This document shows, piece by piece, positions 1 through 13,087 of a stretch of DNA of 13,257 nucleotides; the first letter of the stretch is position 1, and each line of letters starts with the position of its first letter. Location: positions 1 through 13,257 of the IMG/VR virus record IMGVR_UViG_3300045988_112188. One strand, given 5' to 3'. Below the pieces are notes generated by a model. The model worked only from the letters and a program-made list of their open reading frames with translations. It was not told the origin of the DNA and did no database searches. The position numbers and the translations under genes are program-made. Source of the stretch: a virus.

Positions 1-170
1 ACCACCCAGTCTGTCCGCGGCGAACGCACACGAAACACAAACATATGTTCGAAATGGCTTCGCTCCCTCCGGTCGCTCCGCCCATGAGTTAGTAGCATTT
101 AACTCTGACGGGAACAAAGTTAGTTCCAACTAACTCACTCGCGAAAAAAGAGGGCAACCGAAGTCACCCT
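1..170. repeat. Left inverted terminal repeat (ITR), 170 bp
   Basis: Bases 1-170 equal the reverse complement of 13088-13257 except at left-arm positions 78, 105, 106, 126 and 148. The first 77 nt are identical, and homology stops abruptly at 171/13087. It is visibly more GC-rich than the genome body. Long ITRs with a protein-primed polymerase gene are typical of linear TP-capped genomes. Confidence 0.95.
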
Positions 171-172
171 CT
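144..172 (-). terminator. Intrinsic terminator of the leftward operon, inside the left ITR
   Basis: The minus-sense RNA reads AGAGGGUGAC-UUCG-GUUGCCCUCU. This is a 10-bp stem including two G.U pairs with a UUCG tetraloop, followed by UUUUUU. It lies 10 nt after the stop of the last leftward ORF (182). Confidence 0.75.
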
Positions 173-181
173 CACAGAAAA

Positions 182-340
182 TCACTTTTCAATTTCTTTT
201 CTAAGTTCTATATCATATCTAAGAAGTTCTGCACAAACACTCACAAGAAGTTTGTCTAACTCTTCATTAGTTTTTACATATGTCATAGCGTCAATAGTTT
301 CTTTCAATTTATCCCTAGCGTTGTAAACTTTCAAGTTCAT
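182..340 (-). CDS. Hypothetical small protein, 52 aa (below the ORF-track length cutoff)
   Basis: Hand translation gives ATG at 340 to TGA at 184-182: MNLKVYNARDKLKETIDAMTYVKTNEELDKLLVSVCAELLRYDIELRKEIEK. A GAGAGG lies 10 nt upstream of the ATG. The ORF overlaps the polymerase 3' end by 26 nt, fills the otherwise empty gap between the polymerase and the terminator, and is predicted helical. I recognise no family. Confidence 0.35.
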   Translation of the reverse strand: MNLKVYNARDKLKETIDAMTYVKTNEELDKLLVSVCAELLRYDIELRKEIEK

Positions 341-2444
341 ATCTTTTTAACCTCTCATTCTCTAAAAATTCATTCCAATTTCCAACAGATGCCAGAATAT
401 ACATATATTCAGCCGATAAACCGATCTCATATGTTGATTCTCGTAGCACAACATTTGAACGAATTTCAATTCTATGTTCTGGTGAATCATCCGTATAGTA
501 AGTTCCATAATCACAGTCATTGTAGACTGATTCCAACTTACCCGTATCACGGAATATGAAGCCAACATTGAAGTTCTCGATTTTTCCCATTTCTCTTGCT
601 CCTGATTTCTTCGGTACTCCCGCAATTGTAATTTTAAATTGTCCATCTTCATCAACATATGCATACTTTTTCGCTCCTAACGTTTTAAATTGTTTATATG
701 TTTCTTCATATTCATACACACCTAAGTAGTGTGTAACGCCTTTCTTATCATCGGCATATCCCTTATTTGAAATACTGAGTTCTTTAAGTTCTTGATTATA
801 TTCTTCTATTTTCTGAATAATTCTTTCATAATCATCACGAACAAGGAACTTGACAGAATCAGTGTCGCAATATACAAAATTATCTCCAACAATGTTTATC
901 ATCTCTTTCAGCTTTAATCTCGCCCAGGCAGTCACCCAGCAACCCCATGCATAAAGAAGAAATGCTTTTTTGTTGTATTTCTCAAGTTTTTCACCTATGT
1001 CCGCGATTTCTTCAAGTTTAAATGCTTGTTCTGGTTCGTCCATGTATATTATATCTGGCTTGACAGGGTTCTGAGCGCACATTCCATACAGTGAGTTGAT
1101 TAATTCCTTACTCCGCATATAGTTTAGTTCTTGCCCCTCGACATTCTTGAGTGATGTTTTCTTGTGAAACAAGTCAATGACCAGATCCCTAAATGCCCGC
1201 GGTAAATACTCGTATTTTGCAATATACACTTGACTAATCTCGACTTCACCAACATATTCACTCTTGACTATCTTCCAATCAATATCATTAAACACATACA
1301 CAGCCTTATCAGCACTCAGTACCCTACCATTATCAACAACTTGACCACTTATCTCAACAGCCTTGTCAAGACTGAGGTATGGTGCACCATAGTATATATC
1401 CCTCTGTTGTAGATGTGTGATAGTGAACACAGCAATGAAACAACAATCTCTGACTTTGCATTTCCGTTCGAGTTCTTCTATGTCAGTTATCATTCTCGGT
1501 GTGAATGCACTCATAGGGAATCTATAATTAAGCATAACATCTGGATAGCTACTTGCCCTATCAAAACTTGCCACGTTTTCAAGTATCTGATTAACATGAT
1601 ACCTATTAGCGTGTGTATCACCACCACGAAATTCGAGTCTTAACAGTCTATACACATCTTCATTGCACATCATGGCGTGAAGCTGATTATAGTTGTATGA
1701 CCTCATTGCATTCTTAGCAAGCCGTCTGACATATCCCGTAGAGGTAAGTGGTAACGAATAGAGTGTGTCATTTTCCATTTTCATTCGTACCCTCATAGCT
1801 TCAAGTAGACCAACAACGTCATTACAGCAATAGTGCAATTCCTCTTGTGTCATTTCAGTCCATGGGAAACGTTTCTTAGAGTAGTCAAAAATAACCCCAC
1901 TGAGCTTCTGATGCGCAACACCCATGTCTTTTGTAAATGCGTCAAGGCTTTTGTTAGTCTGTATATAAGAACAGCGGAACTGTATTCCGTCAATGTCTGC
2001 TCTCACAACCTTTCGTGACTTGAGTGAGAATACCTTGTCTTTCATAAAGGGAAGCCAATGTCTCAAGAACTGAAATTCATAACTCAAGTTATGCACCCAT
2101 ATCATTATGGTGATACCGTCATGGTAGAAGCTGTTTAGCAACTCAATAAACTCATCCCATGTCCTACCAAAACAATACCAGATATTATCTGTTCTCAAGT
2201 CCATTACAGCGAATTGCCATATATACATTATACTCTGTTCGATTTCGTCCAGATATGTAGTCTCAATGTCAAAAGCACACATACAGTTACGAAATAATGT
2301 CTTGTCAACTTTCTTCCGTCTGTTGTAGTTTCTGGCAATCGGGATACCTCTGATAATATCAGAAAGATACTCTCTTTGGACTTCTTTTACGAAATTCTGA
2401 TTCAAAATCTCTATACCTCTCAATAATCTTTTCTGGTTTCTCAT
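315..2444 (-). CDS. Protein-primed family B DNA polymerase (phi29 gp2-type)
   Basis: All signature motifs are present. ExoI is FDIETT. ExoII is NLSYEFQFL. ExoIII is YCCNDVVGL. Motif A is DRASSYPDVM (Dx2SLYP type). Motif B is KELINSLYG. Motif C is YCDTDS. The KxY motif is GAKKYAY. The start is uncertain: ATG 2444 has no good SD and overlaps the upstream ORF by 86 nt. The next in-frame ATG (residue 55, MCAFDIETT) is also conceivable. Confidence 0.95.
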   Translation of the reverse strand: MRNQKRLLRGIEILNQNFVKEVQREYLSDIIRGIPIARNYNRRKKVDKTLFRNCMCAFDIETTYLDEIEQSIMYIWQFAVMDLRTDNIWYCFGRTWDEFIELLNSFYHDGITIMIWVHNLSYEFQFLRHWLPFMKDKVFSLKSRKVVRADIDGIQFRCSYIQTNKSLDAFTKDMGVAHQKLSGVIFDYSKKRFPWTEMTQEELHYCCNDVVGLLEAMRVRMKMENDTLYSLPLTSTGYVRRLAKNAMRSYNYNQLHAMMCNEDVYRLLRLEFRGGDTHANRYHVNQILENVASFDRASSYPDVMLNYRFPMSAFTPRMITDIEELERKCKVRDCCFIAVFTITHLQQRDIYYGAPYLSLDKAVEISGQVVDNGRVLSADKAVYVFNDIDWKIVKSEYVGEVEISQVYIAKYEYLPRAFRDLVIDLFHKKTSLKNVEGQELNYMRSKELINSLYGMCAQNPVKPDIIYMDEPEQAFKLEEIADIGEKLEKYNKKAFLLYAWGCWVTAWARLKLKEMINIVGDNFVYCDTDSVKFLVRDDYERIIQKIEEYNQELKELSISNKGYADDKKGVTHYLGVYEYEETYKQFKTLGAKKYAYVDEDGQFKITIAGVPKKSGAREMGKIENFNVGFIFRDTGKLESVYNDCDYGTYYTDDSPEHRIEIRSNVVLRESTYEIGLSAEYMYILASVGNWNEFLENERLKRYELESLQR

Positions 2445-2865
2445 CCGAGTGTTCTAAAAATATGTCTACTGCCTTGTCGCTGTCATAGATAATATCTTGT
2501 GAATGTTCTCTTACTTTTTCCATGAACTCATAGAATTTTGATGCCTGTCGATAGTTCTTAAAGTAGTTAGTACCAAAAGTTTCATTAAGACGTTTTACAG
2601 CTTTTTTTCTTGCGCGTTTTCTCTCAGCAATAACGAAAGTCTTATTTTTCAGTGCCGCTTCTGCTTCACGGATTGCCAATTCCAGATTTCTTTTAGAACC
2701 AACCTTAGACACACTAGGTATTCTAGGCTCTATATATGCTTTAGCTTTCTCTACATCTCTAGCGTAAGCACTTTTAGATACTTTCTCAATCTGTCCTACC
2801 AGTTTCTTTCTCAACTCTCTATACTTGACTTCAAGCTGTATTCTACTTGCAGATTTCTTTGCCAT
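2359..2865 (-). CDS. Putative terminal protein (assigned by position immediately upstream of the polymerase); basic 168-aa protein
   Basis: The ORF-track start at 2874 is a GTG only 1 nt after the AGGAG. The ATG at 2865 (MAKKSAS...) sits 10 nt after the AGGAG and is preferred. The N-terminal two thirds are Lys/Arg-rich and helical, and the C-terminal third is acidic and rich in Ser/Tyr/Asp (IIYDSDKAVDIF...). In phi29-type genomes the TP gene directly precedes the polymerase gene on the same strand. I recognise no sequence motif, so the function is inference. Confidence 0.5.
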   Translation of the reverse strand: MAKKSASRIQLEVKYRELRKKLVGQIEKVSKSAYARDVEKAKAYIEPRIPSVSKVGSKRNLELAIREAEAALKNKTFVIAERKRARKKAVKRLNETFGTNYFKNYRQASKFYEFMEKVREHSQDIIYDSDKAVDIFLEHSDEKPEKIIERYRDFESEFRKRSPKRVSF

Positions 2866-3016
2866 ATTTTCCACACTCCTTATTTAAGAGGGAGAGTATA
2901 ACGTTCTCCCTCAATACAATCATTAACGTGTTACTTCTTGACGTTCCCAACTTTTCAGCTAGTGAATCAAGGTTACTTAATATTCTTTCGTCGAAGTTAA
3001 TGCTCACTGTTTTCAT
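2843..3016 (-). CDS. Ribbon-helix-helix (Arc/CopG/MetJ-type) DNA-binding protein, 57 aa
   Basis: The ATG at 3016 lies 7 nt after AGGAG (the track start at 3043 is a TTG). MKTVSINFDERILSNLDSLAEKLGTSRSNTLMIVLRE fits the beta-strand/helix/helix RHH pattern. It overlaps both neighbours, which suggests translational coupling. Confidence 0.7.
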   Translation of the reverse strand: MKTVSINFDERILSNLDSLAEKLGTSRSNTLMIVLRENVILSLLNKECGKYGKEICK

Positions 3017-3287
3017 GTTCATACTCCTTTGTATCAATAACAAGTTCGCAATCTGATGTTAAATTATCAATAAATGGTTCATCCCATTCATCTTCTCCTT
3101 GTATTTCGTCAAATGGCATTAACATATCATCTTCTATGAGTTCAGCGAAAATTTTACGAAACTGTTCAACAACATTTCCTATATATAAATCCAGATTATT
3201 AAATGACCTGTAAAATGCTTTTACTGTGATACCATCGGTGGCGAACAAAATATTGTTTCCGTTAGTTTCTTTAAAATATATCTTCAT
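2997..3287 (-). CDS. Hypothetical acidic early protein, 96 aa
   Basis: AGAGGAG lies 6 nt before the ATG at 3287. Of the last 49 residues, 19 are D/E and only one is K. I recognise no family. Confidence 0.65.
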   Translation of the reverse strand: MKIYFKETNGNNILFATDGITVKAFYRSFNNLDLYIGNVVEQFRKIFAELIEDDMLMPFDEIQGEDEWDEPFIDNLTSDCELVIDTKEYEHENSEH

Positions 3288-3367
3288 TTCTTTCTCCTCT
3301 CGTCCAGACCAAATATAACCATACCTAACATATAACCTATTGTGATACCTAAAATTAAAAGACTCAT
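3284..3367 (-). CDS. Micro-ORF encoding a 27-aa single-pass membrane peptide (not in the ORF track)
   Basis: Hand translation gives MSLLILGITIGYMLGMVIFGLDERRKK, a hydrophobic helix with a basic tail. Its ATG overlaps the stop of the upstream gene (ATGA at 3367-3364). Its stop overlaps the ATG of the downstream gene (ATGA at 3287-3284). It therefore exactly fills the gap between two genes, and AAGGTGA lies upstream. Confidence 0.45.
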   Translation of the reverse strand: MSLLILGITIGYMLGMVIFGLDERRKK

Positions 3368-3597
3368 TTTATAATCACCTTAAAATCAATATTTGTAATA
3401 TCATCCTCCCACATACTAGCTGATAACATACCCTCATTATCCTTGATGTAAATGGTGTAGCCCGTGTTATCCTTTTTAAATTCCAGACTGCTGTAGTCAA
3501 CGTAGAAACGAAGATAATTAACTCTTAATGCTAATGTGTGATAATCCTTAGTGTTTTCAAGTTCCTCTAATTTTTTTCTTATTTCCTGTTTACTCAT
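3364..3597 (-). CDS. Hypothetical protein, 77 aa, first gene of the leftward operon
   Basis: AAGGAG lies 7 nt before the ATG at 3597. The gene sits directly downstream of the leftward promoter. I recognise no family. Confidence 0.65.
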   Translation of the reverse strand: MSKQEIRKKLEELENTKDYHTLALRVNYLRFYVDYSSLEFKKDNTGYTIYIKDNEGMLSASMWEDDITNIDFKVIIK

Positions 3598-3640
3598 TTT
3601 TAATCTCCTTATTATTTAGCTAGTTTCCTGTTACAAGTAT

Positions 3641-3669
3641 ATAATACCACGCTTATTGCTGAATGTCAA
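3641..3669 (-). promoter_or_regulatory. Leftward sigma-A/sigma-70-type promoter
   Basis: On the minus strand there is a -35 TTGACA (3669-3664), a 17-nt spacer, and a -10 TATTAT (3646-3641) preceded by TGg (extended -10). It lies about 45 nt upstream of the first leftward gene. Confidence 0.75.
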
Positions 3670-3690
3670 CAACCAATTCGAAAAAAATTG

Positions 3691-3719
3691 CTGACAAACC
3701 AAAAATATTATGCTATTAT
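3691..3719 (+). promoter_or_regulatory. Rightward sigma-A/sigma-70-type promoter
   Basis: There is a -35 CTGACA (3691-3696), a 17-nt spacer, and a -10 TATTAT (3714-3719) preceded by TGc (extended -10). Its -35 box is 21 bp from the -35 box of the leftward promoter, so the two are back to back. Confidence 0.65.
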
Positions 3720-3724
3720 AATAA

Positions 3725-3741
3725 TGTACTCAAGAAGTACA
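3725..3741. promoter_or_regulatory. Inverted repeat TGTACT-N5-AGTACA at the predicted rightward transcription start (operator or 5' stem-loop candidate)
   Basis: The 6-bp arms are at 3725-3730 and 3736-3741. The element begins 6 nt after the -10 box. Confidence 0.35.
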
Positions 3742-3781
3742 CAGAAACGACACTATAATAAGAAAAAGGAGTGAAAACAAA

Positions 3782-4090
3782 ATGGTTAGAACTATTACAA
3801 CCACAGTGATGAATCTGTACTATAAAGAACAGGATTCAGACGAGATCAAAGTAGCAACACGTGAGTTTGTTGGAACGGCATGGACTCAGACAAAAATGTA
3901 TAATGATATGAAAAAAGATGAACTTGTTCCGGCAGGTGCGACTGTAGAAAACATCACGACAGAAACAAAATTCTGCACATATCATCTGACAGATGAAAAC
4001 TTCATCAAGGCGGCGATCAAGGAACTCGAAGACAGCAGAGTACCATCAGAACCGACAGAAGAAGCAGATATGAAACCCGTAGTGGATTAA
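3782..4090 (+). CDS. Putative phi29 p6-like histone-like dsDNA-binding protein, 102 aa
   Basis: AAGGAGTG lies 8 nt before the ATG. RTITTTVMNL, REFVGTAWTQTKMYNDMKK and an acidic C-terminal tail resemble the phi29 p6 layout as I recall it (ITKTTVNV, ETFVGNLTMEQAQWRMKRK, acidic tail), and the size matches. The similarity is recalled from memory and needs a profile search. Confidence 0.4.
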   Translation: MVRTITTTVMNLYYKEQDSDEIKVATREFVGTAWTQTKMYNDMKKDELVPAGATVENITTETKFCTYHLTDENFIKAAIKELEDSRVPSEPTEEADMKPVVD

Positions 4091-4133
4091 CATTGCGCAC
4101 AGCTTTTCGATCACTATTATAATCACTAATAAC

Positions 4134-4148
4134 GTTCACGTGAAACAT
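4134..4148. promoter_or_regulatory. Palindromic motif copy 1 (GTTCACGTGAAACAT, core TTCACGTGAA)
   Basis: Its reverse complement ATGTTTCACGTGAAC is identical over 15/15 nt to 8010-8024. The 10-bp core is a perfect palindrome. Confidence 0.6.
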
Positions 4149-4170
4149 CACATATATGTTTATCAAGTTA

Positions 4171-4188
4171 ATGTTTCATGTGAAACAT
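4171..4188. promoter_or_regulatory. Palindromic motif copy 2 (ATGTTTCA-TG-TGAAACAT)
   Basis: It has perfect 8-bp inverted arms. It lies 40 bp centre to centre from copy 1 and 13 nt upstream of the AGGAG of the 4214 gene. It shares TTAATGTTTCAyGTGAA..CATG with copy 3. Confidence 0.6.
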
Positions 4189-4213
4189 GAACAAAGAAAA
4201 AAGGAGAAATAAC

Positions 4214-4567
4214 ATGAACATTATTAAAACAAATATTGCAGATGATGATTGGACTATGGATTTATCGTATGATATGTTTGAATCACCTGACCGGCTTCGT
4301 GGCTTAGATCTCAAGGGAGAGCAGGTACACATTGACAAGTATTGTCTCTATGAAGAAGACAACATGAATGGTGATACAGTGAGGGTTCTCACAGTTTCAA
4401 CCACTGAGGGACATGTATTCGCTACTACATCAGCGGCGTTTGTACGCACATTCGACAGAATCATGGAACTTGCGAAAAAATGTGGTGTCACAAATGTTTG
4501 TGTTGAAATTGTAGCAGAACGTAGCAAGAACAACCGTGAATACATTACTGCAAAATATGTCAAGTAA
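4214..4567 (+). CDS. Putative phi29 p5-like single-stranded DNA-binding protein, 117 aa
   Basis: The ATG at 4214 is 7 nt after AGGAG, whereas the track start at 4187 lies inside palindrome copy 2. VLTVSTTEGHVFATTSAAFVRTFDRIMEL...VCVEIVAERSKNNREYITAKY resembles the C-terminal half of phi29 p5 as I recall it (...FAADGSLYSAISKTVAEAASDLIDLV...KVKVVQGTSSKGNVFFSLQL), and the size is similar. The similarity is recalled from memory. Confidence 0.4.
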   Translation: MNIIKTNIADDDWTMDLSYDMFESPDRLRGLDLKGEQVHIDKYCLYEEDNMNGDTVRVLTVSTTEGHVFATTSAAFVRTFDRIMELAKKCGVTNVCVEIVAERSKNNREYITAKYVK

Positions 4568-5621
4568 GAAGAAATCCAACCTGTACACAGCACAGGGATA
4601 CCTAAATATTAGAGGGATAGTTGAAAATGGCTATCCCTTTAATTTTATTTGGGGAGGCAGAGGTACAGGAAAGACATATGGTGGTCTGAAATATGCCTTA
4701 GAAGAACACAAGACCTTTATGTATTCTAGAACAAAACAGACTCAACTTGACAAAATCAAAAACAAAGAACTATCTCCACTTAAACCTCTTAATGATGATC
4801 TAGGTTACAACATACAGCCTTACGCCATTAATAACATTGCGGGATATTATCATACATCAGAAGATGAAGATGGTAAAACAACACCAGTGGGAAAACCTGT
4901 AGGCTATGGATCGGCTATCACCACACTGTCAAACTTACGTGGTTTTTCAGCAGAGGACGTTTCTCTATGGATATGGGACGAATTCATTCCACAGAAAGGT
5001 GATAGAGTTCCTAGAGGAATAGCAGAATCATTCCTGCATGGTTATGAAACCATGAACCGAAACAGGGAGTTGAAAGGACTACCGCCGCTACAGGTGCTAT
5101 GCTTCTCGAACTCAGACAATGTAGGCTGTGAACTGTTCGCCAGTCTAGGACTTATCCGCAAAGTCGCGGATATGTCACGGAAAAGACAGGAAACAGCTTT
5201 CCTCAAGTCAAGAGGCATCGCTTTATATAACTTATGTAATAGTCCTATCTCACAGGCGAAAAAAGAAACAGCACTCTATAAGATGGTAGGCGAACACAGC
5301 GGCTTTTCTCAAATGGCTTTAGGAAATGAATTCTATGATACTGACTATTCGGATGTAAGATCGCAAAACCTATCAGAATATCTTCCGTTAGTATTTTTCG
5401 AAGAAATCGCAATCTATGAACACAAGTCCTCAGATATGCTCTATGTGTGCAAGCATAAACAGGGTACGCCAATTCGAACATTTACAGGAATAAACGAAAA
5501 GAACATCAAAGCCTTTAAACGGTACTATTCATGGATATGGAATGTAAATTATCTCGAAGACAAAATCTTTTTCGAGGACATAGAATCTAAATTTCTACTT
5601 GACAGCTATTTTCATATGTAG
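4557..5621 (+). CDS. DNA packaging (encapsidation) ATPase, phi29 gp16-type
   Basis: Walker A is GGRGTGKTYG. Walker B is LWIWDEFI. MNRNRE and CFSNSDNV match the phi29 gp16 pattern (GARGIGKSY, IVFDEFI, RNRER, LSNA). The start is either the ATG at 4557 (overlapping the upstream stop) or the GTG at 4536, and neither has a strong SD. Confidence 0.9.
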   Translation: MSSKKKSNLYTAQGYLNIRGIVENGYPFNFIWGGRGTGKTYGGLKYALEEHKTFMYSRTKQTQLDKIKNKELSPLKPLNDDLGYNIQPYAINNIAGYYHTSEDEDGKTTPVGKPVGYGSAITTLSNLRGFSAEDVSLWIWDEFIPQKGDRVPRGIAESFLHGYETMNRNRELKGLPPLQVLCFSNSDNVGCELFASLGLIRKVADMSRKRQETAFLKSRGIALYNLCNSPISQAKKETALYKMVGEHSGFSQMALGNEFYDTDYSDVRSQNLSEYLPLVFFEEIAIYEHKSSDMLYVCKHKQGTPIRTFTGINEKNIKAFKRYYSWIWNVNYLEDKIFFEDIESKFLLDSYFHM

Positions 5622-5627
5622 TACAAT
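5599..5627 (+). promoter_or_regulatory. Consensus-like promoter embedded in the 3' end of the ATPase gene
   Basis: There is a -35 TTGACA (5599-5604), an exactly 17-nt spacer, and a -10 TACAAT (5622-5627). The predicted start at about 5633-5635 coincides with the first base pairs of the structured element. Confidence 0.6.
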
Positions 5628-5632
5628 GTTTG

Positions 5633-5723
5633 TATAGGGAAAACAAAAGTCCGTGGCACAAGGACATACAGCGGAACTGTAGTGCGAGGATTCGTCCAAT
5701 CCATGATACGGACTTTCCCTATA
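5633..5723 (+). ncRNA. Candidate packaging RNA (pRNA-like) or structured leader; 91-nt three-way-junction RNA
   Basis: The closing helix P1 pairs TATAGGG 5633-5639 with CCCTATA 5717-5723, and AAAGTCCGT 5646-5654 with ACGGACTTT 5708-5716. P2 pairs GCAC 5656-5659 with GTGC 5682-5685, and TACAG 5667-5671 with CTGTA 5677-5681, and carries a bulge AAGGACA 5660-5666. P3 pairs GGAT 5688-5691 with ATCC 5699-5702 and has the loop TCGTCCA. The bulge GGAC is complementary to the loop GUCC. The region is non-coding and lies between the ATPase gene and the next gene. Confidence 0.45.
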
Positions 5724-5758
5724 TTTAACAGTTCCAAAAAAGAAAGCGGGTGAATAAA

Positions 5759-5956
5759 ATGGACATTAATTCATTAAGTACAATTTTTGCAAATTTGGGC
5801 GTGCCTGTGGCATGTCTCACTGTAACATTCTATCTGTGGTATCAGGAGATGCAGTCGCACAAAGAAGAAGTGAGTAAGTTGCAGGATGCTCTCAACAACA
5901 ACACGCTTGTCTTACAGAAACTTCTTGACAGACTGGGAGAGGGTGATTCACATTGA
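5759..5956 (+). CDS. YvrJ-like small membrane protein; holin candidate
   Basis: The ATG at 5759 follows GGGTGA (the track start at 5750 is the GTG inside that SD). A single hydrophobic helix (IFANLGVPVACLTVTFYLWY) is followed by a charged coiled-coil tail. The pattern G-(F/V)-P...TFYL...E...L resembles the YvrJ family that is common in Firmicutes prophages. Confidence 0.55.
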   Translation: MDINSLSTIFANLGVPVACLTVTFYLWYQEMQSHKEEVSKLQDALNNNTLVLQKLLDRLGEGDSH

Positions 5957-6279
5957 ACATATCAGCAGAAATCATTGCAAAAACATCTGAAAGCGTAAAG
6001 GGATATATGCTTCATCCGCACACGGATGTATACGGCGAATTAAAAGTTGATACCAAAAACCTTGACTTGATGTTACGCGATGCACCGACTTATGACAGCA
6101 ATGTGATCGCTTCTATGCCAAAAGGCAGTACATTTTTTGGATATGGATTTACCGATTCCACCCTTAAATGGGTACTCGGACAGTATACCATGCCGAACGG
6201 AAAAATGATTGCAGGATTCGCCCACATTGACTATCTAATCAGAATCAGAAAGGAGAATAAAAGACATGACAATGGATGA
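5953..6279 (+). CDS. Stand-alone bacterial SH3 (SH3b)-like domain protein, 108 aa
   Basis: The TTG start at 5953 is 6 nt after GAGGGTGA and overlaps the upstream stop (TTGA). LMLRDAPTYDSNVIASMPKGSTFFGYGF...KWVLGQYTMPNGKMIAGFAHIDYL fits the SH3_3 cell-wall-binding pattern (LxxRxxPxxxSxVIxxxxKGxxF...W...G..G.v...YL). No catalytic domain is attached. Confidence 0.55.
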   Translation: MNISAEIIAKTSESVKGYMLHPHTDVYGELKVDTKNLDLMLRDAPTYDSNVIASMPKGSTFFGYGFTDSTLKWVLGQYTMPNGKMIAGFAHIDYLIRIRKENKRHDNG

Positions 6280-6766
6280 TATTATCGCACTCGCGGGTGC
6301 GGGATTTACAAAAAATGACATTATTTCATTAATTAATACCACACCAGCACCAGCACCAGCACCAGCACCAGCACCAGCACCAGCACCAGCACCAGCACCA
6401 GCACCAGCACCAGCACCACAGTTAGGAATTCCACCAGTACCAGTAGGAGTTATAGCACAGCAGGTAGTCACACCACCGGAGTTATTACAGGATCAGCTTA
6501 CAAGTCCGTCAACAGCAGGACAGGCTCAGAGTCAGTTAGTTGATTATGCTTTTCAGCAGGGGAATTATGCAGGGAGTCCGACACAGAATGTAGTAGGGCG
6601 GCAGTTTCCGAATAATGACCAGTTAACGAATTCTATCAATGCACTGACCAGAGCGGTGCAGGCTAATGGGATCACACAGAATCTTGCAGGAGTTAATCAT
6701 GTTCCGACTGTCGATGAAATGACAGCGGCTATTATTAATCCACCGGAAATTATGCAGAGGGGGTAA
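6266..6766 (+). CDS. Putative head scaffolding protein with a (Pro-Ala)12 linker
   Basis: AAGGAG lies 9 nt before the ATG. The gene sits immediately upstream of the major capsid gene, as phi29 gene 7 does. The protein has a small helical N-terminal module, a (PA)12P linker, and a Q/N/P-rich low-complexity C-terminal part. The function is assigned by synteny only. Confidence 0.5.
   Translation: MTMDDIIALAGAGFTKNDIISLINTTPAPAPAPAPAPAPAPAPAPAPAPAPQLGIPPVPVGVIAQQVVTPPELLQDQLTSPSTAGQAQSQLVDYAFQQGNYAGSPTQNVVGRQFPNNDQLTNSINALTRAVQANGITQNLAGVNHVPTVDEMTAAIINPPEIMQRG
6344..6418. repeat. Perfect hexanucleotide tandem repeat (CCAGCA) x 12.5
   Basis: I counted unit by unit from 6344 to 6418 and found no interruption. 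The repeat is in frame and encodes (PA)12P. Confidence 0.95.
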
Positions 6767-6769
6767 AGT

Positions 6770-7963
6770 ATGGCTAGTTCGACTTTTATATCGGTTGATA
6801 AACCATCAATCGGAAATTTCAATGCAGTTGCTACGTTAAATGCTATTATTTCACAAGCTACTGGCAAAACTGCTGTGAGTGCTGTTAATAATAATTTTGT
6901 GTCAGTTGCTACCACAGCAATAGGAATTGCACCAGACGCATTACTTAATGCTATTTCACAGGTTATTTCAAGGACTATTTTTTCCATACGTCCATACAAT
7001 AGAAAGTTTGCAGGACTTTTTGTGGATAGCATGAAATGGGGCAACCACGTTCGTAAAATTAACATCGGAGACAAAGACTGGGAAGCAAATGTTTCTTACG
7101 ACTTAACAGATGGACAGAGCATAGATGCTGACATTGTAAGCAAACCAGATATTTTACAGACCAATTTTTATGGACAGTGTGTATACAGTAAGCACTATAC
7201 CATTTTCCGTGACCAGTTGAACATTGCTTTGCAGAATGAAGAGGAGTTTGAGAGATTCTATACCATGCTTGTTCAGAATACCATGGATATGATTGAACAG
7301 TGCCATGAAAACACAGCAAGGGCAACTATCGCAAACTTAATCGGCGGCAAGGTTAAAGGTGATACCACAAATGTTATTCACCTTGTCACAGAATATAATG
7401 ATGTGACAGGTCTTGAACTTGACAGTGATACTGTGAAAAAACCAGAAAATTTTGTTCCATTTTACAAATGGGCATTTTCTAGAATCAAAACAATCTCCGG
7501 TTTTATGACGGAAAGAAGTTTGCAGTATCACATCAATGTTACTGGTCACAATATTATGAGACATACACCTGTGCAGAATCAAAGACTGTATCTCTACACG
7601 CCAGAAATGAACAACGTGGAAAGTTCTGTATTTTCAAGTGTGTTCAACGAACAGTACTTGAAGATGATGGACTATGAGGGAGTTAATTTTTGGCAATCAA
7701 TTAAAACTCCTATGGGTATTAATGTACAGGCAAGATATATGTTACCTAATGGTTCTATAACACCAGACAGTACAGGTACAGCAACTTCAAACATTTTCGG
7801 TATTCTCATGGATGAAGAAGCGGCAGGAATCACTACCTACGGTGCAAGAACTGCTGTCACACCATATAATGCAAGAGGTGAGTACACTAATGTTTGGTGG
7901 CACTTCAACGATCGGTATTGGAATGATTTTACTGAGAACGCTGTTGTGTTTTTACTTGACTAA
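6770..7963 (+). CDS. Major capsid protein (phi29 gp8-type, HK97 fold), 397 aa
   Basis: GAGGGGG lies before the ATG. The C-terminus RGEYTNVWWHFNDRYWNDFTENAVVFL parallels phi29 gp8 [27 protein letters not shown]. The N-terminal NAISQVISRTIFSIRPYNRKF parallels [25 protein letters not shown]. The gene lies between the scaffold candidate and a strong terminator. It lacks the C-terminal Ig-like extension of phi29 gp8. Confidence 0.85.
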   Translation: MASSTFISVDKPSIGNFNAVATLNAIISQATGKTAVSAVNNNFVSVATTAIGIAPDALLNAISQVISRTIFSIRPYNRKFAGLFVDSMKWGNHVRKINIGDKDWEANVSYDLTDGQSIDADIVSKPDILQTNFYGQCVYSKHYTIFRDQLNIALQNEEEFERFYTMLVQNTMDMIEQCHENTARATIANLIGGKVKGDTTNVIHLVTEYNDVTGLELDSDTVKKPENFVPFYKWAFSRIKTISGFMTERSLQYHINVTGHNIMRHTPVQNQRLYLYTPEMNNVESSVFSSVFNEQYLKMMDYEGVNFWQSIKTPMGINVQARYMLPNGSITPDSTGTATSNIFGILMDEEAAGITTYGARTAVTPYNARGEYTNVWWHFNDRYWNDFTENAVVFLLD

Positions 7964-7979
7964 GTTCTCTTTCTCCTAT

Positions 7980-8004
7980 GGGCGGGTGTTATGCCCGCTC
8001 TTTT
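7980..8004 (+). terminator. Intrinsic terminator or attenuator after the capsid gene
   Basis: GGGCGGG-tgttatg-CCCGCTC forms a 7-bp GC-rich stem with one G.U pair, followed by TTTT. It begins 17 nt after the capsid stop codon. Confidence 0.7.
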
Positions 8005-8009
8005 AATTA

Positions 8010-8026
8010 ATGTTTCACGTGAACAT
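8010..8026. promoter_or_regulatory. Palindromic motif copy 3 (ATGTTTCACGTGAACAT)
   Basis: It starts 6 nt after the terminator T-tract and ends 2 nt before the GAGGTG SD of the tail-knob gene. It is identical over 15 nt to the reverse complement of copy 1. Confidence 0.6.
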
Positions 8027-8039
8027 GCGAGGTGATAAT

Positions 8040-9443
8040 ATGAGTTTTAATGTTGAGTTTTTCCGGGTGGCAAAAAGAAAAAATTCTACTTTTGTTCCTG
8101 AGACTAAAGACGTTGTAAGAACAGAGATGTGTACCATCAAAGAGGGTACAGGGGTGTTAAATCCTGTTATTACTATCGCAAATTCTTCTGCATCTTTCAA
8201 TCCGTCAAGATGGAACTATTGTCATATTAGTACATTTTCACGATATTACTGGATTAGTGACTGGAAAAATGAGGATAATTTGTGGACGGCTCAATTAAAA
8301 GTTGATGTTCTTGCGTCTTATAGAGAAACCATTAAAGACTATAACTACTATGTGGTAAGGTCTTCTACTTCCTTTGACGGCGGTATTGCTGACGCTCTTT
8401 ATCCGAAAAAGCCACAGGTCAACAGGCAAACTGTGACTGGCAATCCTCTATGGCAGATTGAACAGGGGTTTGATATTGCAGGTTCTTATGTAGTAGGTAT
8501 TGTGAACAAACAAGGTCTTTGCAACTACTATGCCATGAATCCTGCAAACTTTAAAAAACTCGCCAATTCAATATTCAGCAATATTAAGTGGATGGTAGGA
8601 GATGGAATCTCGGGAGTATCTGACAATCTGATACAGATAGCTGTTAATCCCGCTCAGTACATTACGTCAGTGACATGGTTTCCATTCACACTTGGCGGTA
8701 CACAAATGTCTGGCATTTCTATCGGTTGGTGGGATGTTACAGGATTAACATTATACAAGTTGGATGATGACTTGTGGAAAACAAAAGAAACTTCTGTCAC
8801 TCCTACATCACATCCACAGTTAGAACGTGGCAATTATCTTAATTGTCAGCCATACAGATATATCAGAGTATATATTCCACCTTTCGGTTGTCTCACTGTT
8901 GACAGTGGCAAAATAAGAGATGGTGAAAGTATTAAGATAAGTGCAGACGTAGACCCACGTACAGGTCATGCATTATGTCGCATATCAGTTGATAATACTG
9001 GTGGTGGAAATGAGTTACTCGGAATCATGTACTCCAATATTGGCGTTTCTATTTCAACCAGTGATATCAAAACCAATTACTCAAACGTAGCATCAGGTGT
9101 AAGCAACGCATTAGGTTCATTATTTAAGCTTGATGTTGGCGGCTTCGCAAAAGGAGTTGTGAACAGTGCTATGGCTGTAGGTTCGGCAGAAGTTTCCACA
9201 AAAGGCGGTCAGGGGTCAACTATTGGATTGACTTCTTATGTGTATTGCTATATTGACTGTATGCTATTAGTTGATGAAGACAGAGCGGATAATGGTAGAC
9301 CTTACTGTAAAAACAGTAAATTCTCAACACTTGGGGACGGTTATTATGAGGTTGAAAATGGTAGTACTCCCATATCAGGAGCATATCAGAGTGAAATTGA
9401 CGAGGTTAAAAACTTCTTGGAAAGCGGGGTATATTATGCGTAG
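8040..9443 (+). CDS. Tail knob / distal tail tube protein (phi29 gp9-type), 467 aa
   Basis: The ATG at 8040 lies 5 nt after GAGGTG, whereas the track start at 8010 is inside the palindrome. SRYYWISDWKNEDNLWTAQLKVDVLASY parallels phi29 gp9 [31 protein letters not shown]. The Gly/Ala/Ser-rich segment NVASGVSNALGSLFKLDVGGFAKGVVNSAMAVGSAEVSTKGGQGS (9084-9218) parallels the gp9 hydrophobic loop. The C-terminal SEIDEVKNFLESGVYY parallels NDLQEIRTIFDNGITLW. Confidence 0.7.
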   Translation: MSFNVEFFRVAKRKNSTFVPETKDVVRTEMCTIKEGTGVLNPVITIANSSASFNPSRWNYCHISTFSRYYWISDWKNEDNLWTAQLKVDVLASYRETIKDYNYYVVRSSTSFDGGIADALYPKKPQVNRQTVTGNPLWQIEQGFDIAGSYVVGIVNKQGLCNYYAMNPANFKKLANSIFSNIKWMVGDGISGVSDNLIQIAVNPAQYITSVTWFPFTLGGTQMSGISIGWWDVTGLTLYKLDDDLWKTKETSVTPTSHPQLERGNYLNCQPYRYIRVYIPPFGCLTVDSGKIRDGESIKISADVDPRTGHALCRISVDNTGGGNELLGIMYSNIGVSISTSDIKTNYSNVASGVSNALGSLFKLDVGGFAKGVVNSAMAVGSAEVSTKGGQGSTIGLTSYVYCYIDCMLLVDEDRADNGRPYCKNSKFSTLGDGYYEVENGSTPISGAYQSEIDEVKNFLESGVYYA

Positions 9444-10092
9444 TTACTACAATGAGGGCAAAGGAACGGCTCTTATCTTCTATCTGTTAGGAAAACAGCA
9501 AGGCGGGGGCACAGTACCACCAATTACACCGGCAGGTGAATGGAAAACCATTGTTACTGACACAACATCAGGTTATCTTTCGCAGTCAGACATGGAAAGT
9601 AATGCCACTATTATTTGGGACTATTTCTATCAGAAACTTGGATGGAATGTTAACAGTGTGGCGGCATTACTTGGAAACATGCAAGGCGAAAGTACTTTGA
9701 ATCCGGGTCTTATTGAGGTTGGCGGTGGTACTACATCAGCAGGAGCAGGACACGGACTTGTACAGTGGACACCCGCCAGCGATTTATATGCTGTTCTCGA
9801 TGTTCTGTACGGTGATCACACTGACTGGTATGATGGAAATAAACAGCTTGGTGTAATCTATGCTGAGTATCAGGAAAGCGTTGGCGAAGCGCATAGAGGT
9901 ATTGAACCACAGTGGTATAAGACTACTAAATATCCATGCGATTTCAGACAGTGGGCGTTTAATCAGCTTAACTACGACTTGGAAAAATTAACCTATGCTT
10001 TTGCGGCAAATTACTTGCGTCCGGCTGTAGTAGAACAACCACAAAGAGTCACATATACGCGTCAGTGGCTTGATTATTTTTTAAAGGGGTGA
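9436..10092 (+). CDS. Tail-associated peptidoglycan hydrolase (phage tail lysozyme domain, phi29 gp13 N-terminal type), 218 aa
   Basis: The ATG at 9436 overlaps the upstream stop (ATGCGTAG). The 165-nt upstream extension in the ORF track lies inside the tail-knob gene. NATIIWDYFYQKLGWNVNSVAALLGNMQGESTLNP...GHGLVQWT matches the tail-lysozyme signature (aAgilGNxxxESxxnP ... GxGlxQWt). Confidence 0.7.
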   Translation: MRSYYNEGKGTALIFYLLGKQQGGGTVPPITPAGEWKTIVTDTTSGYLSQSDMESNATIIWDYFYQKLGWNVNSVAALLGNMQGESTLNPGLIEVGGGTTSAGAGHGLVQWTPASDLYAVLDVLYGDHTDWYDGNKQLGVIYAEYQESVGEAHRGIEPQWYKTTKYPCDFRQWAFNQLNYDLEKLTYAFAANYLRPAVVEQPQRVTYTRQWLDYFLKG

Positions 10093-10096
10093 GAAA

Positions 10097-11020
10097 ATGA
10101 TTAATTATTTGAATAATTGTGGTGTACCGGTTAATTATGACATGATTAATTTATACACCTCTAGTTATTCGCCATCTACATTGCATTGCAAAAACACTCA
10201 GTTATATTCCTATTTTTTGAGATATCTTCTACAGAAATGCATGTCAGTGTTTAAGTGGGAGTTGCCAGAAGAATGGGATAAGAATTACTTCTTATATACG
10301 TTATACTGCTGGGGGTTTTTATGTGTGTTTTACACCGACAAGTACGGTGTGATTCCGCAGGCGTGTGGTATTCAAGGTTATAATATCTTTTATCAACCGA
10401 CTCAAGTTAATATTGCTAATCCATTATTAGTAGGTATTAACACAAGGACTATCAACAAGGATTGCATAATTATAAGATTACAACCAGACTGGCGTGGTGT
10501 AATAGACATATGTTCTTACTACGCAGACAATATGGCATTAACTGCTGAAACTTGTGAAATTAACATCGCTAACAGTAAGTTAACATATATGTTTGGCGTT
10601 GATGGAAAAGCACAAGCAGAGTCCTTGAAAGAAACGTTTGATCAGATTATGAAAGGAAATACCTCGGTATATTATGGAAATAATCTCAGACGAAGAGATT
10701 CTATGGGAAATACTACTGAACCATGGTCAACGTTCGCAAATAAATTGCGGGATAATTTCATAGCACCAGATTTACAGGACACTCTAAGGAGATGGGAAGA
10801 AATGTTCTGTAATGACGTTGGAATTCCTAACGTACGGTCTGACAAAAAAGAAAGGTTGATAACTGCTGAAGCTGAGAGTAATAATTTCGAGACACAGAGC
10901 AAGTGTGATTTATGGCTCGAAGAATTACAGAAAAGTTGCGATAAAATTAATAAAATGTTTGGTGATAAACTTAGCAGTAGAGTGTGGGTTAATTGGCGAA
11001 AGGGTGAGAAAAATGTGTAA
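10097..11020 (+). CDS. Portal / upper collar connector protein (phi29 gp10-type), 307 aa
   Basis: GGGGTGA lies before the ATG. [28 protein letters not shown] parallels phi29 gp10 [57 protein letters not shown] parallels [38 protein letters not shown] parallels CEKINELYG. The length is nearly identical to gp10. Confidence 0.9.
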   Translation: [307 protein letters not shown]

Positions 11021-11070
11021 ATAACTATTATAGTGTATACAAATTTGACAAAAATAAAGTAGGTGAGTGT

Positions 11071-11736
11071 ATGAGTTCTTATATTTCAATTATAGGATTA
11101 CTAAACTGGGACGAGAATATAATCGACAGTACATTTCTTGATGTATTTGTCTCATTGTTCGAGACTGAAACAATTGCTATGAATATGTTGGAACGCTTAG
11201 AAGATTTGATTGTGTACGAGTGTGGTGAGTTAGAGGTTACTTTGCCTAACCCGACATTTTTCAAAAGAATCGTAAAAAGTTGGGCTGATAACCAGACAGA
11301 AGTATGGAAAGCGTACTATTCCGCACAAAAAGCTGTAGACGTTGACTCAAATAATATATTGTTAGGTGGCACACAGGAAGTGTTGACAGGAAAAGACGGA
11401 GCTTCAAGTACTAGAGCATTAGAGCGTGGTGGTAATACTTCAATACAGCATACCGGCAATAACGTTGTTGACACCTCAGTATTTGGATTCAATGAGAGTG
11501 CCGCAAAACCGAAAGATAATACCGTGTCAACAGATAATTTTACAGATACTAATAATGTTAATCTATCTGATAATGAAACATTCAAAAATGATGTGATTAG
11601 GAATCAGACAAAAACATTTACGGATTATGGAAAATTTTTTGACATGGCTAGTAAATTTGATACACTGTCGGGAATGAATGTAATCAATAAAATTGTATAT
11701 GATTTTAGAGATAGATTCTGTCTTAGTGTTTATTAA
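11071..11736 (+). CDS. Putative lower collar protein (phi29 gp11-type), 221 aa
   Basis: AGGTGA lies before the ATG. The gene sits directly after the portal gene, as in phi29. It has a long polar T/N/S/G-rich central segment compatible with the extended beta-hairpin tube of lower collar proteins. The assignment rests mainly on synteny. Confidence 0.55.
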   Translation: MSSYISIIGLLNWDENIIDSTFLDVFVSLFETETIAMNMLERLEDLIVYECGELEVTLPNPTFFKRIVKSWADNQTEVWKAYYSAQKAVDVDSNNILLGGTQEVLTGKDGASSTRALERGGNTSIQHTGNNVVDTSVFGFNESAAKPKDNTVSTDNFTDTNNVNLSDNETFKNDVIRNQTKTFTDYGKFFDMASKFDTLSGMNVINKIVYDFRDRFCLSVY

Positions 11737-11750
11737 CAGGAGGTATAAAT

Positions 11751-13082
11751 ATGGCATTCTGGAATAAATTTCCTTTTACAAATTTTCACGAAATGAATCT
11801 GGATTGGTTAATTGCTACCATGAAAGAATTAACGGACGGTTTTAATGTTCTTGACAATAGTGTTAAACAGCAGTTAAAAGACTTTAACACCACAATGACT
11901 AACACGCTCACTTCTCAGAATACGAAGATTAACGACTTTGTTAATAATTATGAAGCGAAAGTTAATGATATTCCGAATCAGGTGTTGAAAGACGTTAGAA
12001 CTGTTATGCATGATTATGAAACCGCTGGCGTTTTTGAAGAAATTATTGAAGAAACATATGGAGCAGTAAGTTATTTAAATGACATGCAGAACAAAAAAAT
12101 TGTACTTCTCGGAGACAGTTTAACAGATGAAACTAGGTCTGTAAGTTGGGTTAAAAGCTTTAAGAACATGCTGACGAATACAGGCTGTACCGTATTAAGT
12201 TATGCTAAGTCTGGAGAAAAAATGGCAGAACAGGCTACGAGATTCGAAGCATGTACCGTAAAACCAGATATTCTGTGGATATGGTGTGGTATTAATGATG
12301 TGAGAGATCAGACAAGTTTATCTGCATTAGATACCGCTTTGGATAAGATAAGAACAAAAGTACAGAAACTTAATCCAAAATGTCAGGTGTATCTAATGAG
12401 TACATACAAAAATAATAGAGGTATGCAGTCAGGATGGATTATTCCGCAAACAGCATATTGGCGTTATATGAGTCAGTACGCTATAATCAACGGATGGACT
12501 TTTATTGATGGATTTTCAAGTGCGCCTGTTATTACACCAGAGACATCAATTATGCAGAGTACTTTTTATTCTGAAACCGACGGACATTATTTACATTACA
12601 CAGCCGCTTACACCGATATTTTAGCAAGATGGATTTTAAATTGCATGATTAATCAGTCACCCGTTCCATTAGGAGACTATAAAGAACTTGTTCCAGCGGC
12701 TAACTTTTCAGCAAAAATCAATGCAACCTCTAAGTTTGTACCTAACAGTGGTGGTACATTCTGTGAATTCGGAACACATATGGTTCATGTAAGATTAGTG
12801 GGTGCTTTCACGCCAGGCTCTAATAGTCCGCAATACACTAAAATTTGTACGTTGCCAGAATTTTGTAGACCAAAACAGACTTTAGGACATGAACTTGCTT
12901 TTCGTGGTGGTGGTATTGGTTCTGATGGTGGTCAGTATGTAGTTCCTGTTTATCTTGATTCTGATGGTAGTGTTTATTTTTATAACAGGTCATTGACATT
13001 AGAAAGTTTCACCTCAGCCACATTGTCGTGTGATATTTATATTCACGACCTTAAAACTGATTGGGAGAGAACAGCTTCCTAA
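11751..13082 (+). CDS. Tail appendage / receptor-binding protein with a central SGNH (GDSL) esterase domain, 443 aa
   Basis: AGGAGG lies 7 nt before the ATG. The N-terminal FPFTNFHEMNLDWLI plus a coiled-coil-like segment is typical of virion-anchoring N-termini in small podophage fibres. SGNH block I is IVLLGDSLTDE, block II is SGEKM, block III is WCGINDV, and a block V-like TDGHYLH is present. A roughly 130-aa beta-rich C-terminal domain follows. It is the last gene of the late operon. Confidence 0.7.
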   Translation: MAFWNKFPFTNFHEMNLDWLIATMKELTDGFNVLDNSVKQQLKDFNTTMTNTLTSQNTKINDFVNNYEAKVNDIPNQVLKDVRTVMHDYETAGVFEEIIEETYGAVSYLNDMQNKKIVLLGDSLTDETRSVSWVKSFKNMLTNTGCTVLSYAKSGEKMAEQATRFEACTVKPDILWIWCGINDVRDQTSLSALDTALDKIRTKVQKLNPKCQVYLMSTYKNNRGMQSGWIIPQTAYWRYMSQYAIINGWTFIDGFSSAPVITPETSIMQSTFYSETDGHYLHYTAAYTDILARWILNCMINQSPVPLGDYKELVPAANFSAKINATSKFVPNSGGTFCEFGTHMVHVRLVGAFTPGSNSPQYTKICTLPEFCRPKQTLGHELAFRGGGIGSDGGQYVVPVYLDSDGSVYFYNRSLTLESFTSATLSCDIYIHDLKTDWERTAS

Positions 13083-13087
13083 ACGTT

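Follow-up and report, generated by a model that had tools for sequence, protein, structure and literature searches.

A promoter-driven three-way-junction RNA beside the packaging ATPase gene of a small phi29-like phage: a candidate minimal packaging RNA

We analysed the IMG/VR virus record IMGVR_UViG_3300045988_112188 (positions 1 to 13,257; "the window" refers to this whole stretch of 13,257 bp), in which a small structured RNA had been predicted immediately after the gene for the DNA-packaging ATPase and proposed as a candidate packaging RNA (pRNA), by analogy with that of phage phi29. Bases 1-120 and 13138-13257 form inverted repeats, with an exact match over the first 77 bases and a nearly perfect one over 120, and the record is therefore a complete linear phi29-like phage genome bounded by terminal inverted repeats. 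Its ends are presumably capped by terminal protein, and at 13,257 bp it is among the smallest tailed-phage genomes. The ATPase gene, the promoter in front of the RNA and the elements of the RNA itself were located as follows.

4536..5621, plus strand: gp16-type DNA-packaging (encapsidation) ATPase, 361 amino acids (PHROG 2150 terminase and Pfam Podovirus_Gp16)
5599..5604, plus strand: -35 hexamer TTGACA, inside the last ATPase codons
5622..5627, plus strand: -10 hexamer TACAAT, immediately behind the TAG stop codon (5619-5621) of the ATPase gene
5633..5723, plus strand: small RNA, about 91 nt long, which folds as a three-way junction and whose 5' and 3' ends pair (minimum free energy, covariance models and covariation)
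5633..5641, plus strand: A helix, outer segment, 5' strand UAUAGGGAA, pairing with 5715-5723
5642..5647, plus strand: one-sided 6-nt bulge AACAAA in the A helix, placed like the CCA bulge of phi29 pRNA
5648..5655, plus strand: A helix, inner segment, 5' strand AGUCCGUG, pairing with 5707-5714; double changes in six pairs
5656-5685, plus strand: hairpin arm 1 (C helix, bulge and E hairpin)
5656..5659, plus strand: C helix of 4 bp, 5' strand GCAC, pairing with 5682-5685 (GUGC)
5660..5666, plus strand: one-sided 7-nt CE-type bulge AAGGACA, with the "right-hand" motif GGAC at 5662-5665
5667..5681, plus strand: E hairpin, with a 5-bp stem (5667-5671 with 5677-5681) and the pentaloop CGGAA (5672-5676)
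5686-5687, plus strand: junction strand of 2 nt
5688..5702, plus strand: D hairpin (hairpin 2), with a 5-bp stem and the 5-nt loop CGUCC, which holds the "left-hand" motif GUCC at 5694-5697
5703-5706, plus strand: junction strand of 4 nt
5707..5723, plus strand: A helix, 3' strand ACGGACU followed by UUCCCUAUA, and then UUUAAC

The two promoter hexamers are separated by 17 nt, and the ATPase stop codon falls between them. The promoter matches the sigma-70 consensus at 11 of 12 positions, the top score within the 13,257 bp, tied by one minus-strand site (3669-3641), and its predicted transcription start (~5632-5635) coincides with the start of the A helix. The near-consensus promoter that the original prediction had placed in the last ATPase codons, with transcription starting at the closing helix, was thus confirmed at its coordinates. 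The predicted fold, a three-way junction with paired ends and two hairpins, also held up: the minimum free energy of 5633-5723 was -29.8 kcal/mol, compared to -17.6 +/- 3.0 kcal/mol in 200 dinucleotide shuffles (z = -4.05), and none of the 200 shuffles folded as well. A terminator scan of the window called no terminator-like site after the element (none at 5620-5730), in agreement with the earlier remark that no strong terminator follows it, and the 3' strand of the A helix is followed only by UUUAAC.

A blastn search with 4536-6300 against 50,697 phage records returned no match, and relatives were therefore gathered through the ATPase protein. This search yielded 33 IMG/VR contigs of about 13 kb with ATPase identities of 54-95%, 11 more distant contigs, 494 candidates in human-gut metagenomes (80 contigs of these were taken) and several unannotated "human fecal" phage records. 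All close relatives carried a promoter and the element after the ATPase stop codon. We used two covariance models, R1, trained on close copies only, the window copy included, and a broader model, R2. The window element scored 101 bits with R1, which had been trained on this copy, and 91.5 bits with R2, and was the sole match in the genome. Among loci that R1 had not seen, the element was detected in L035-L039 with its position and strand unchanged (E = 7.5e-6 to 1.8e-3), with marginal matches in L040 and L041. The model matched 77 of the 80 metagenome loci and one more with filters off; the remaining two contigs end before the site, and the element is present in 78 of 78 metagenome loci whose contigs reach it. 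Three fecal phage records were matched as well. Altogether, exactly one R1 match was obtained per locus in 87 of 87 loci, over ATPase identities of 31-98%, and no further match at E <= 5 was found on either strand of the 398 kb that these loci comprise. A sigma-70-type promoter scoring at least 9 of 12 was present upstream of the element in 86 of the 87 loci, with a 17-nt spacer in 80. For one relative, MT835998.1 (L149, 14 kb), the site beside the ATPase gene seemed empty, and a scan of the whole record located the RNA at 1043-1133 (45.5 bits, E = 1e-12), about 1 kb from one genome end. The element belongs to a large and previously undescribed family of small non-coding RNAs that occur in 12-15-kb phi29-like human-gut podoviruses; we found no paper, and no Rfam family, that describes the RNA.

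Covariation was assessed in two alignments. The first contained 26 distinct copies aligned with MAFFT and fitted to no structure. The RNAalifold consensus of this alignment was identical to the single-sequence fold, with compensatory double changes in 15 of 21 pairs. When the pairing between the bulge and the D loop was included in the structure, 97.4% of the pair cells held standard pairs, compared to 76.7% in column shuffles and 27-39% when the partners were slid by 1-3 columns, and double changes were seen in 17 of 25 pairs. The second alignment contained 75 distinct rows with the helices, and not the bulge/loop pairing, fitted to the model. Here, 88.4% of the cells were paired (63.3% shuffled, 26-51% slid) and 29 of 32 pairs showed double changes. 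G-U or U-G occupied 149 cells and A-C or C-A only 69, and the structure therefore belongs to the plus-strand RNA.

The compensatory changes that had been proposed as a test of the three helices were found in the closing helix and in both arms. In relatives, the outer A helix is swapped for GUGAGGG/CCCUCAC, GUCAGGAG/CUCCUGAC, GGGCAG/CUGCCC or AGGAGGAA/UUCCUCCU, and the A-helix bulge is kept in the clade of the window (consensus AAC-A-A); in some distant clades (L035, L064-L079) the A helix is continuous. The C helix is paired in 100% of cells, through changes from GCAC/GUGC to GUUC/GAAC, GUAC/GUAC, GAGC/GCUC and others, and the E stem shows compensatory changes in all 5 pairs. The E loop CGGAA is almost invariant, with CAGAA, CCGAA or UYGGGAG in distant clades. 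Taken together, these comparisons of related loci show a real, strand-specific, promoter-driven structured RNA with one copy per examined locus. We also observed that the 5' strand of the A helix (5633-5641 and its equivalents in relatives) is always purine-rich and often resembles a Shine-Dalgarno sequence (GGGAAAA, GGAGGAA, GGGGGAG), the 3' strand being correspondingly CU-rich.

The original prediction had pointed to a complementarity between GGAC in the bulge (5662-5665) and GUCC in the loop of the other hairpin (5694-5697). Both motifs were found at these positions, and GUCC occupies positions 2-5 of the D loop, as in phi29. The check for co-variation of the two was positive. Among the 26 copies, the four bulge/loop pairs were 100% paired with 2 compensatory positions (G-C to A-U in L024 and L025, and A-U to U-A in L033), and among the 75 rows the four core pairs were 93-97% paired, with up to five pair types. 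In a scripted comparison of each bulge with each D loop, 39 of 39 distinct combinations kept 3-6 contiguous Watson-Crick pairs, with a mean of 4.8 for cognate and 2.6 for non-cognate combinations. The motifs number about 14 (GGAC, GAAC, GGUC, AACC(A), GCACA, GACA, GAAAC, GUACA, UGUGC, AAUCA, GGUAA, GUCG, UCGCC and UAAUCA), in pairs such as GAAC/GUUC and AACCA/UGGUU. Further pairs were recognised by eye, namely UAAUCA/UGAUUA in L040, UCGCC/GGCGA in L036, GCUA/UAGC in MT835998.1 and an 8-bp match, AAAAGGAA/UUCCUUUU, in L129.

The genome around the RNA carries the genes that a comparison with phi29 calls for.

315-2444, minus strand: protein-primed family-B DNA polymerase (polB), by library match
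5759..5956, plus strand: holin-like small membrane protein, the first gene downstream of the RNA, so labelled from its hydrophobic N-terminal stretch MDINSLSTIFANLGVPVACL...
6770-7963: phi29-type major capsid protein (Pfam Phi29_MCP, E = 2e-15)
10097-11020: gp10-type portal (Pfam Phage_connector, E = 3e-20; matches to 7PV2 and to phi29 1H5W)

A tail lysozyme is encoded as well. The ATPase matched the PHROG 2150 terminase over its full length (E = 5e-21) and Pfam Podovirus_Gp16 weakly, and a profile of the ATPase and its relatives matched phi29 gp16 in the packaging-motor structure 7JQQ (E = 1.4e-21) over chain residues 84-321. The match therefore includes the C-terminal domain of gp16, which in phi29 touches the pRNA. 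These matches, together with those of the portal, bear out the earlier assignment of a gp16-type ATPase and a gp10-type portal. Scans with Rfam and R2 revealed no other pRNA candidate in the genome, as had also been stated.

Packaging RNAs are described as confined to phi29 and related Bacillus phages in reviews of 2016 (PMC5066667) and 2024 (PMC11476376), and the phages named in a 2025 Infernal survey that added 12 pRNAs are all Bacillus phages (PMC12670572). Among these, loop sequences vary from phage to phage and complementarity is retained (PMC5066667; PMC12670572), and in phi29 the A-helix bulge C18C19A20 is needed for packaging (PMC5066667). Our literature search found no report of a pRNA in gut or Clostridium phi29-like phages. 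We compared the window RNA with the known pRNAs of the Bacillus phages phi29, PZA, B103/M2/Nf, SF5, GA1 and the DLc1 group (RF00044; Salasmaviridae). As in these phages, it is encoded in a phi29-like genome whose polymerase is protein-primed, whose portal is of the gp10 type and whose ATPase is of the gp16 type, and a strong host-type promoter drives it. Its ends are paired in an A helix, which in the clade of the window has a 5'-strand bulge. The Rfam structure line of phi29 pRNA reads as a 3-nt bulge on the 5' strand of the A helix, the C helix, a 9-nt bulge on the 5' side only, the E hairpin, UUU and the D hairpin; the window RNA has the same elements as this domain I in the same 5'-to-3' order. 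The phi29 D hairpin has a 5-nt loop that pairs at positions 2-5, the register seen in the window RNA, and in both the CE-bulge motif is complementary to these positions while the motifs vary and the pairing is kept.

The two RNAs differ in size and position. Members of the family measure about 75-120 nt, compared to a domain I of 117-120 nt and a complete phi29 RNA of 174 nt, and the window RNA lacks domain II. The A helix comprises 10-17 bp rather than about 24, the junction strands measure 2, 2 and 4-6 nt rather than 1, 3 (UUU) and 0, and the conserved CGGAA pentaloop of the E hairpin is particular to the new family. Unlike the phi29 pRNA gene, which lies at the left genome end (201-318) under the early promoter A1, the gene described here is located mid-genome, usually 3' of the ATPase gene and before the late operon. 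The earlier description of a divergent minimal form of pRNA, shorter and differently located, fits this comparison.

RNAs with the same layout were also seen in phages that have been cultured. Amedibacillus phage AD70P3 (L125, OP172639.1; 12.2 kb, Guelinviridae) encodes an ATPase that is 27% identical to that of the window, and the 123-nt gap after its ATPase gene holds a TTGACA promoter and an element of the same layout at 5860-5935 (C helix UUGC/GCAA, bulge AUAUCCAA, E loop CCGAA and D hairpin AGUA-GGGA-UACU). With filters off, R2 matched this element at the expected site (16 bits, E = 0.027); its bulge and loop share only a 3-bp match, UCC/GGA, and the assignment, made by architecture only, is tentative. 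With default filters R2 gave no match in AD70P3, CI461P1, CI644P4, CI130P1, L129 or L131. With filters off, non-significant matches were obtained at the expected sites of L131 and L129, and their elements, too, are putative assignments by architecture only. The folds of AD70P3 and L129 were no better than shuffles (z = -1.2 and -0.3, respectively).

A second RNA, of about 115 nt, was found between polB and the ATPase gene in the C. innocuum phages CI461P1 (L133, OP172763.1; ~9900-10025, minus strand) and CI130P1 and in 13 IMG/VR relatives (further loci: L135 and L136-L148). It is promoter-driven and forms a three-way junction, with an A helix of 23 bp that ends in a U-tract, an E hairpin, the D loop CUGGUAA and a one-sided bulge whose last bases are ACCA. 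Compensatory changes were found in nine pairs, and ACCA and UGGU are complementary but invariant. This RNA matched no Rfam family and showed no sequence similarity to the window RNA. Its bulge lies about 9-10 bp from the junction and its D loop about 3 bp, and a contact between the two within one molecule is therefore unlikely there. The hosts of the phages described here are probably gut Firmicutes rather than Bacillus, a guess that we base on the two nearest cultured relatives, which infect Amedibacillus (at an ATPase identity of only 27%), and on the RNA of the same layout in the C. innocuum phages.

We judge it probable, with considerable reserve, that the element represents a minimal class of packaging RNA outside the Bacillus phages. 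This reading draws on several lines: a real structured RNA in single copy per locus, complementarity that is kept while the motifs change, the discreteness of the RNA in several lineages (see below), a phi29-like genome, the layout of pRNA, and a second RNA with that layout. Every prediction of the packaging reading that could be tested at the level of sequence is supported. By analogy with phi29, we infer binding to the prohead and to the ATPase, pairing between molecules, formation of a ring and a requirement for packaging. Transcription from the host sigma-70-type promoter that overlaps the end of the ATPase gene would start where the A helix begins, and the remainder of the transcript would fold as a three-way junction, with one arm made up of the C helix, the one-sided bulge and the E hairpin (CGGAA) and the other of the D hairpin, so that the D loop has a complement of four to six bases in the bulge. 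Through their junction and arm domain, copies of the RNA would attach around the gp10-type portal of an empty prohead, as in phi29, neighbouring copies being linked "hand in hand" by bulge-to-D-loop pairing, and the A helices would then dock the gp16-type ATPase for DNA packaging.

A number of observations weigh against the packaging reading, and some of them would be expected if the RNA were a discrete small RNA in which the bulge and the D loop form an intramolecular pseudoknot that would hold the fold compact, with a role other than packaging, such as the binding or titration of a protein of the phage or the host or the regulation of late expression in trans. The C helix has 4-5 bp, compared to 9 in phi29 pRNA, and the D helix 3-5 bp. 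With a C helix of 4 bp, the bulge and the D loop of the window RNA lie at a similar distance from the junction and could meet within one molecule; by a geometric estimate, a five-membered ring with such short arms may be too small for the portal. The lengths of the helices and junction strands do not discriminate between cis and trans pairing. Nor is the RNA always next to the ATPase gene: in MT835998.1 about 8 kb separate the two, which lie on opposite strands, and the RNA is found upstream of a holin-like gene, and therefore linkage to the ATPase gene is usual rather than obligatory and the RNA gene has moved relative to it in evolution. The near-invariant CGGAA loop resembles a specific site of contact with protein or RNA, as a role outside packaging would allow. 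As for the motor itself, the N-terminus of the portal does not align to phi29 gp10 and is without the basic RKR stretch of that protein.

Similarity to the known pRNAs was not detectable either. The scan with the Rfam covariance model that had been suggested as a check turned out negative: RF00044 (Phage_pRNA) gave no match in the window at E <= 10 and none in six related loci at E <= 5, with a gathering score of 100 bits and a score of 145 bits for phi29 pRNA as a control. Conversely, R1 run with filters off against the phi29 pRNA locus returned only noise, at most 4.5 bits. Neither model recognises the other family, and therefore homology, or common ancestry, with the known pRNAs is not demonstrable. 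The RNA is not a member of RF00044.

A pseudoknotted RNA without a role in packaging nevertheless appears unlikely to us. It would leave unexplained both the element-by-element match to the layout of pRNA and the presence of exactly one copy in every examined phage of the clade, each of which has a gp16-type motor. An accessory regulator would be expected to be patchy in distribution, yet the RNA was present in every related locus examined, and in the C. innocuum phages, whose RNA shares the layout, a contact within one molecule is unlikely.

The original prediction had offered the alternative of a structured 5' leader. Such a leader would act in cis on the late transcript, as a stabiliser, as an attenuator made up of the A helix and a U-tract, or in translational control. 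The arrangement in the window and most relatives agrees with it, since the RNA is preceded by the strong promoter and followed, with no terminator, by the holin-like gene and its ribosome-binding site (~5743-5753 in the window), and the scaffold/capsid genes come next. The holin-like gene heads this operon, and its homologue comes after the RNA in most relatives; its product matched no family in library scans. In the clade of the window there is no terminator and the same promoter apparently also drives the late operon, and therefore the RNA would be co-transcribed with the late genes there and a free small RNA would need processing, which adds to the points that weigh against a packaging role. 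In MT835998.1 the element has stayed with the holin-like gene and not with the ATPase gene. In some clades, a downstream Shine-Dalgarno sequence could alternatively pair with the 3' strand of the A helix, which is rich in pyrimidines (for example CUCCCCCU or UUCCUCCU).

The leader reading is contradicted, however, in several lineages. In L039, in which the polymerase and the ATPase are on one strand, the RNA has a promoter of its own (TTTACA, 17 nt, TATAAT with TG; 4029-4057) and a 14-bp terminator (4130-4160) comes directly after it, with convergent genes beyond, so that there is no co-directional downstream gene and nothing to lead. In the large L080-L119 clade, the RNA is 114-121 nt long with an extra hairpin and ends directly at a terminator; between this terminator and the late genes lie two ATGTTTCACGTGAAACAT palindromes and then an apparent promoter of the late genes' own. 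In L131 (MT836587.1, 2583-2728), a gene for tRNA-Gln (UUG), supported by a match to the Rfam tRNA model, begins 2 nt past the A helix, which suggests co-transcription, and RNase P would release the 3' end of the RNA. A run of U5-U7 abuts the A helix in L033 and MT835998.1. That the A helix abuts a terminator, a tRNA or a U-tract in several lineages indicates that it bounds the mature RNA. Together with the lack of a co-directional downstream gene, the terminators and the tRNA at +2 argue for a discrete small RNA that is not merely a 5' leader, and judged by gene arrangement these data show the RNA to be an independent gene in several lineages. Moreover, a simple stabiliser or attenuator needs no three-way junction, covarying bulge/loop pairing or invariant pentaloop. 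We therefore regard a cis-acting leader as quite improbable.

Among leader-type RNAs, we compared the element with the put antitermination RNA of phage HK022. Both are structured RNAs at the 5' end of a phage transcript, followed in some of the clades here by a terminator and the late genes. HK022 put consists of two stem-loops that act on the transcribing polymerase and has neither a three-way junction nor a covarying bulge/loop pairing, and, unlike put, the RNA of L039 has no downstream co-directional genes to antiterminate into.

Two kinds of sequence between the RNA and the genes that follow were observed in passing. Directly after the small RNA of L040 (4160-4205) and L041 (4100-4145) lies a tRNA-like minihelix, in which a 7-bp acceptor-like stem (GCGGAAG/CUUCCGU) surrounds a T-arm with the loop consensus GGUUCGAUUCC, followed by UUUU. 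ARAGORN calls no tRNA at this minihelix, which could be a terminator or a processing signal for RNase P or RNase Z. A perfect palindrome, (A)TGTTTCACGTGAAACAT, occurs in one or two copies between the small RNA and the late genes in several clades, as in L089 (2726-2773), and also just upstream of the holin-like gene in L011-L019 and L021-L025. The window lacks this palindrome, which resembles an operator site that a dimeric regulator of late transcription would bind.

Candidates from described RNA classes were tried and rejected. The element overlapped no Rfam match to known riboswitch, ribozyme, tRNA-like or pRNA families (E <= 10 in the window, E <= 5 in six related loci). A hammerhead ribozyme was rejected for lack of a CUGAUGA/GAAA core, and a CsrA-type GGA decoy because the bulge motif is not conserved and some clades have CAGAA or CCGAA as their E loop.

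A ligand-sensing riboswitch or self-cleaving ribozyme of an undescribed class would share the three-way junction and the loop/bulge pseudoknot, which are typical of several aptamers, and the position upstream of an operon fits a riboswitch. The closest likeness is to three-way-junction aptamers of the purine and tetrahydrofolate (THF) riboswitch type, which have a closing helix, two arms and Watson-Crick pairing between a segment and a loop of the arms, and whose position can be promoter-proximal and upstream of genes. In contrast to these, the RNA described here has no Rfam match, and its junction strands are short and variable, without a conserved core resembling a ligand pocket, its only strongly conserved unpaired motif being a hairpin loop. 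It has no conserved expression platform, it occurs in stand-alone copies with their own terminator or a following tRNA, including one with no downstream gene, and it is found in every examined member of one phage clade and is not tied to a metabolic gene. The probability of this alternative is accordingly very low. A chance fold, or a terminator of the ATPase gene or a palindrome acting at the DNA level, which the position directly after the stop codon and the short U-rich stretch after the closing helix might have suggested, has a negligible probability and is already refuted by the comparative data, given the z score of the fold, the empty terminator scan at the element, the massive compensatory variation across the 87 loci, the excess of G-U over A-C cells of about 2:1 that assigns the structure to the plus-strand RNA, and the conserved promoter upstream, so that the element does not close a transcript.

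Two other regions of the genome drew our attention. An open reading frame (ORF) of 166 amino acids (6266-6766), between the small genes downstream of the RNA and the capsid gene, encodes a run of about 12 Pro-Ala dipeptides, specified by a GCTCCT-type tandem repeat at 6341-6386. The ORF matched no family, and judged by its position it may encode the scaffolding protein. The leftward replication genes are separated from the rightward genes by an intergenic region (3598-3781) with two back-to-back near-consensus promoters that have TG-extended -10 boxes, one on the minus strand (3669-3641, 11 of 12) and one on the plus strand (3691-3719, 10 of 12). This region is probably the early control region.

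To our knowledge, pRNA has since 1987 been the sole known RNA that is essential to a viral DNA-packaging motor. We put forward, tentatively, the possibility that pRNAs are a general and probably ancestral part of gp16-type motors, and that at least three classes exist that are unrelated in sequence and equivalent in architecture. These would be the Bacillus class (RF00044), the class of 75-120 nt in hundreds of human-gut phage genomes, to which the window RNA would belong as a minimal pRNA, and the class of about 115 nt in the C. innocuum phages. The cultured relatives AD70P3 and CI461P1 make the packaging idea directly testable. If it is true, the RNA-dependent design of the motor would be widespread, abundant human-gut phages included, and a comparison of very different solutions would reveal the features that are required, namely paired ends, a three-way junction and an interlocking bulge and loop. 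It would also bear on whether pRNA survives as a relic of ancient origin or took the place of a terminase domain that was lost, and would provide RNA nanotechnology with much smaller self-assembling three-way-junction modules and about 14 natural orthogonal loop pairs. Even without a role in packaging, the element would represent a new structured RNA family that is present in every examined member of its clade, among them some of the smallest tailed phages.

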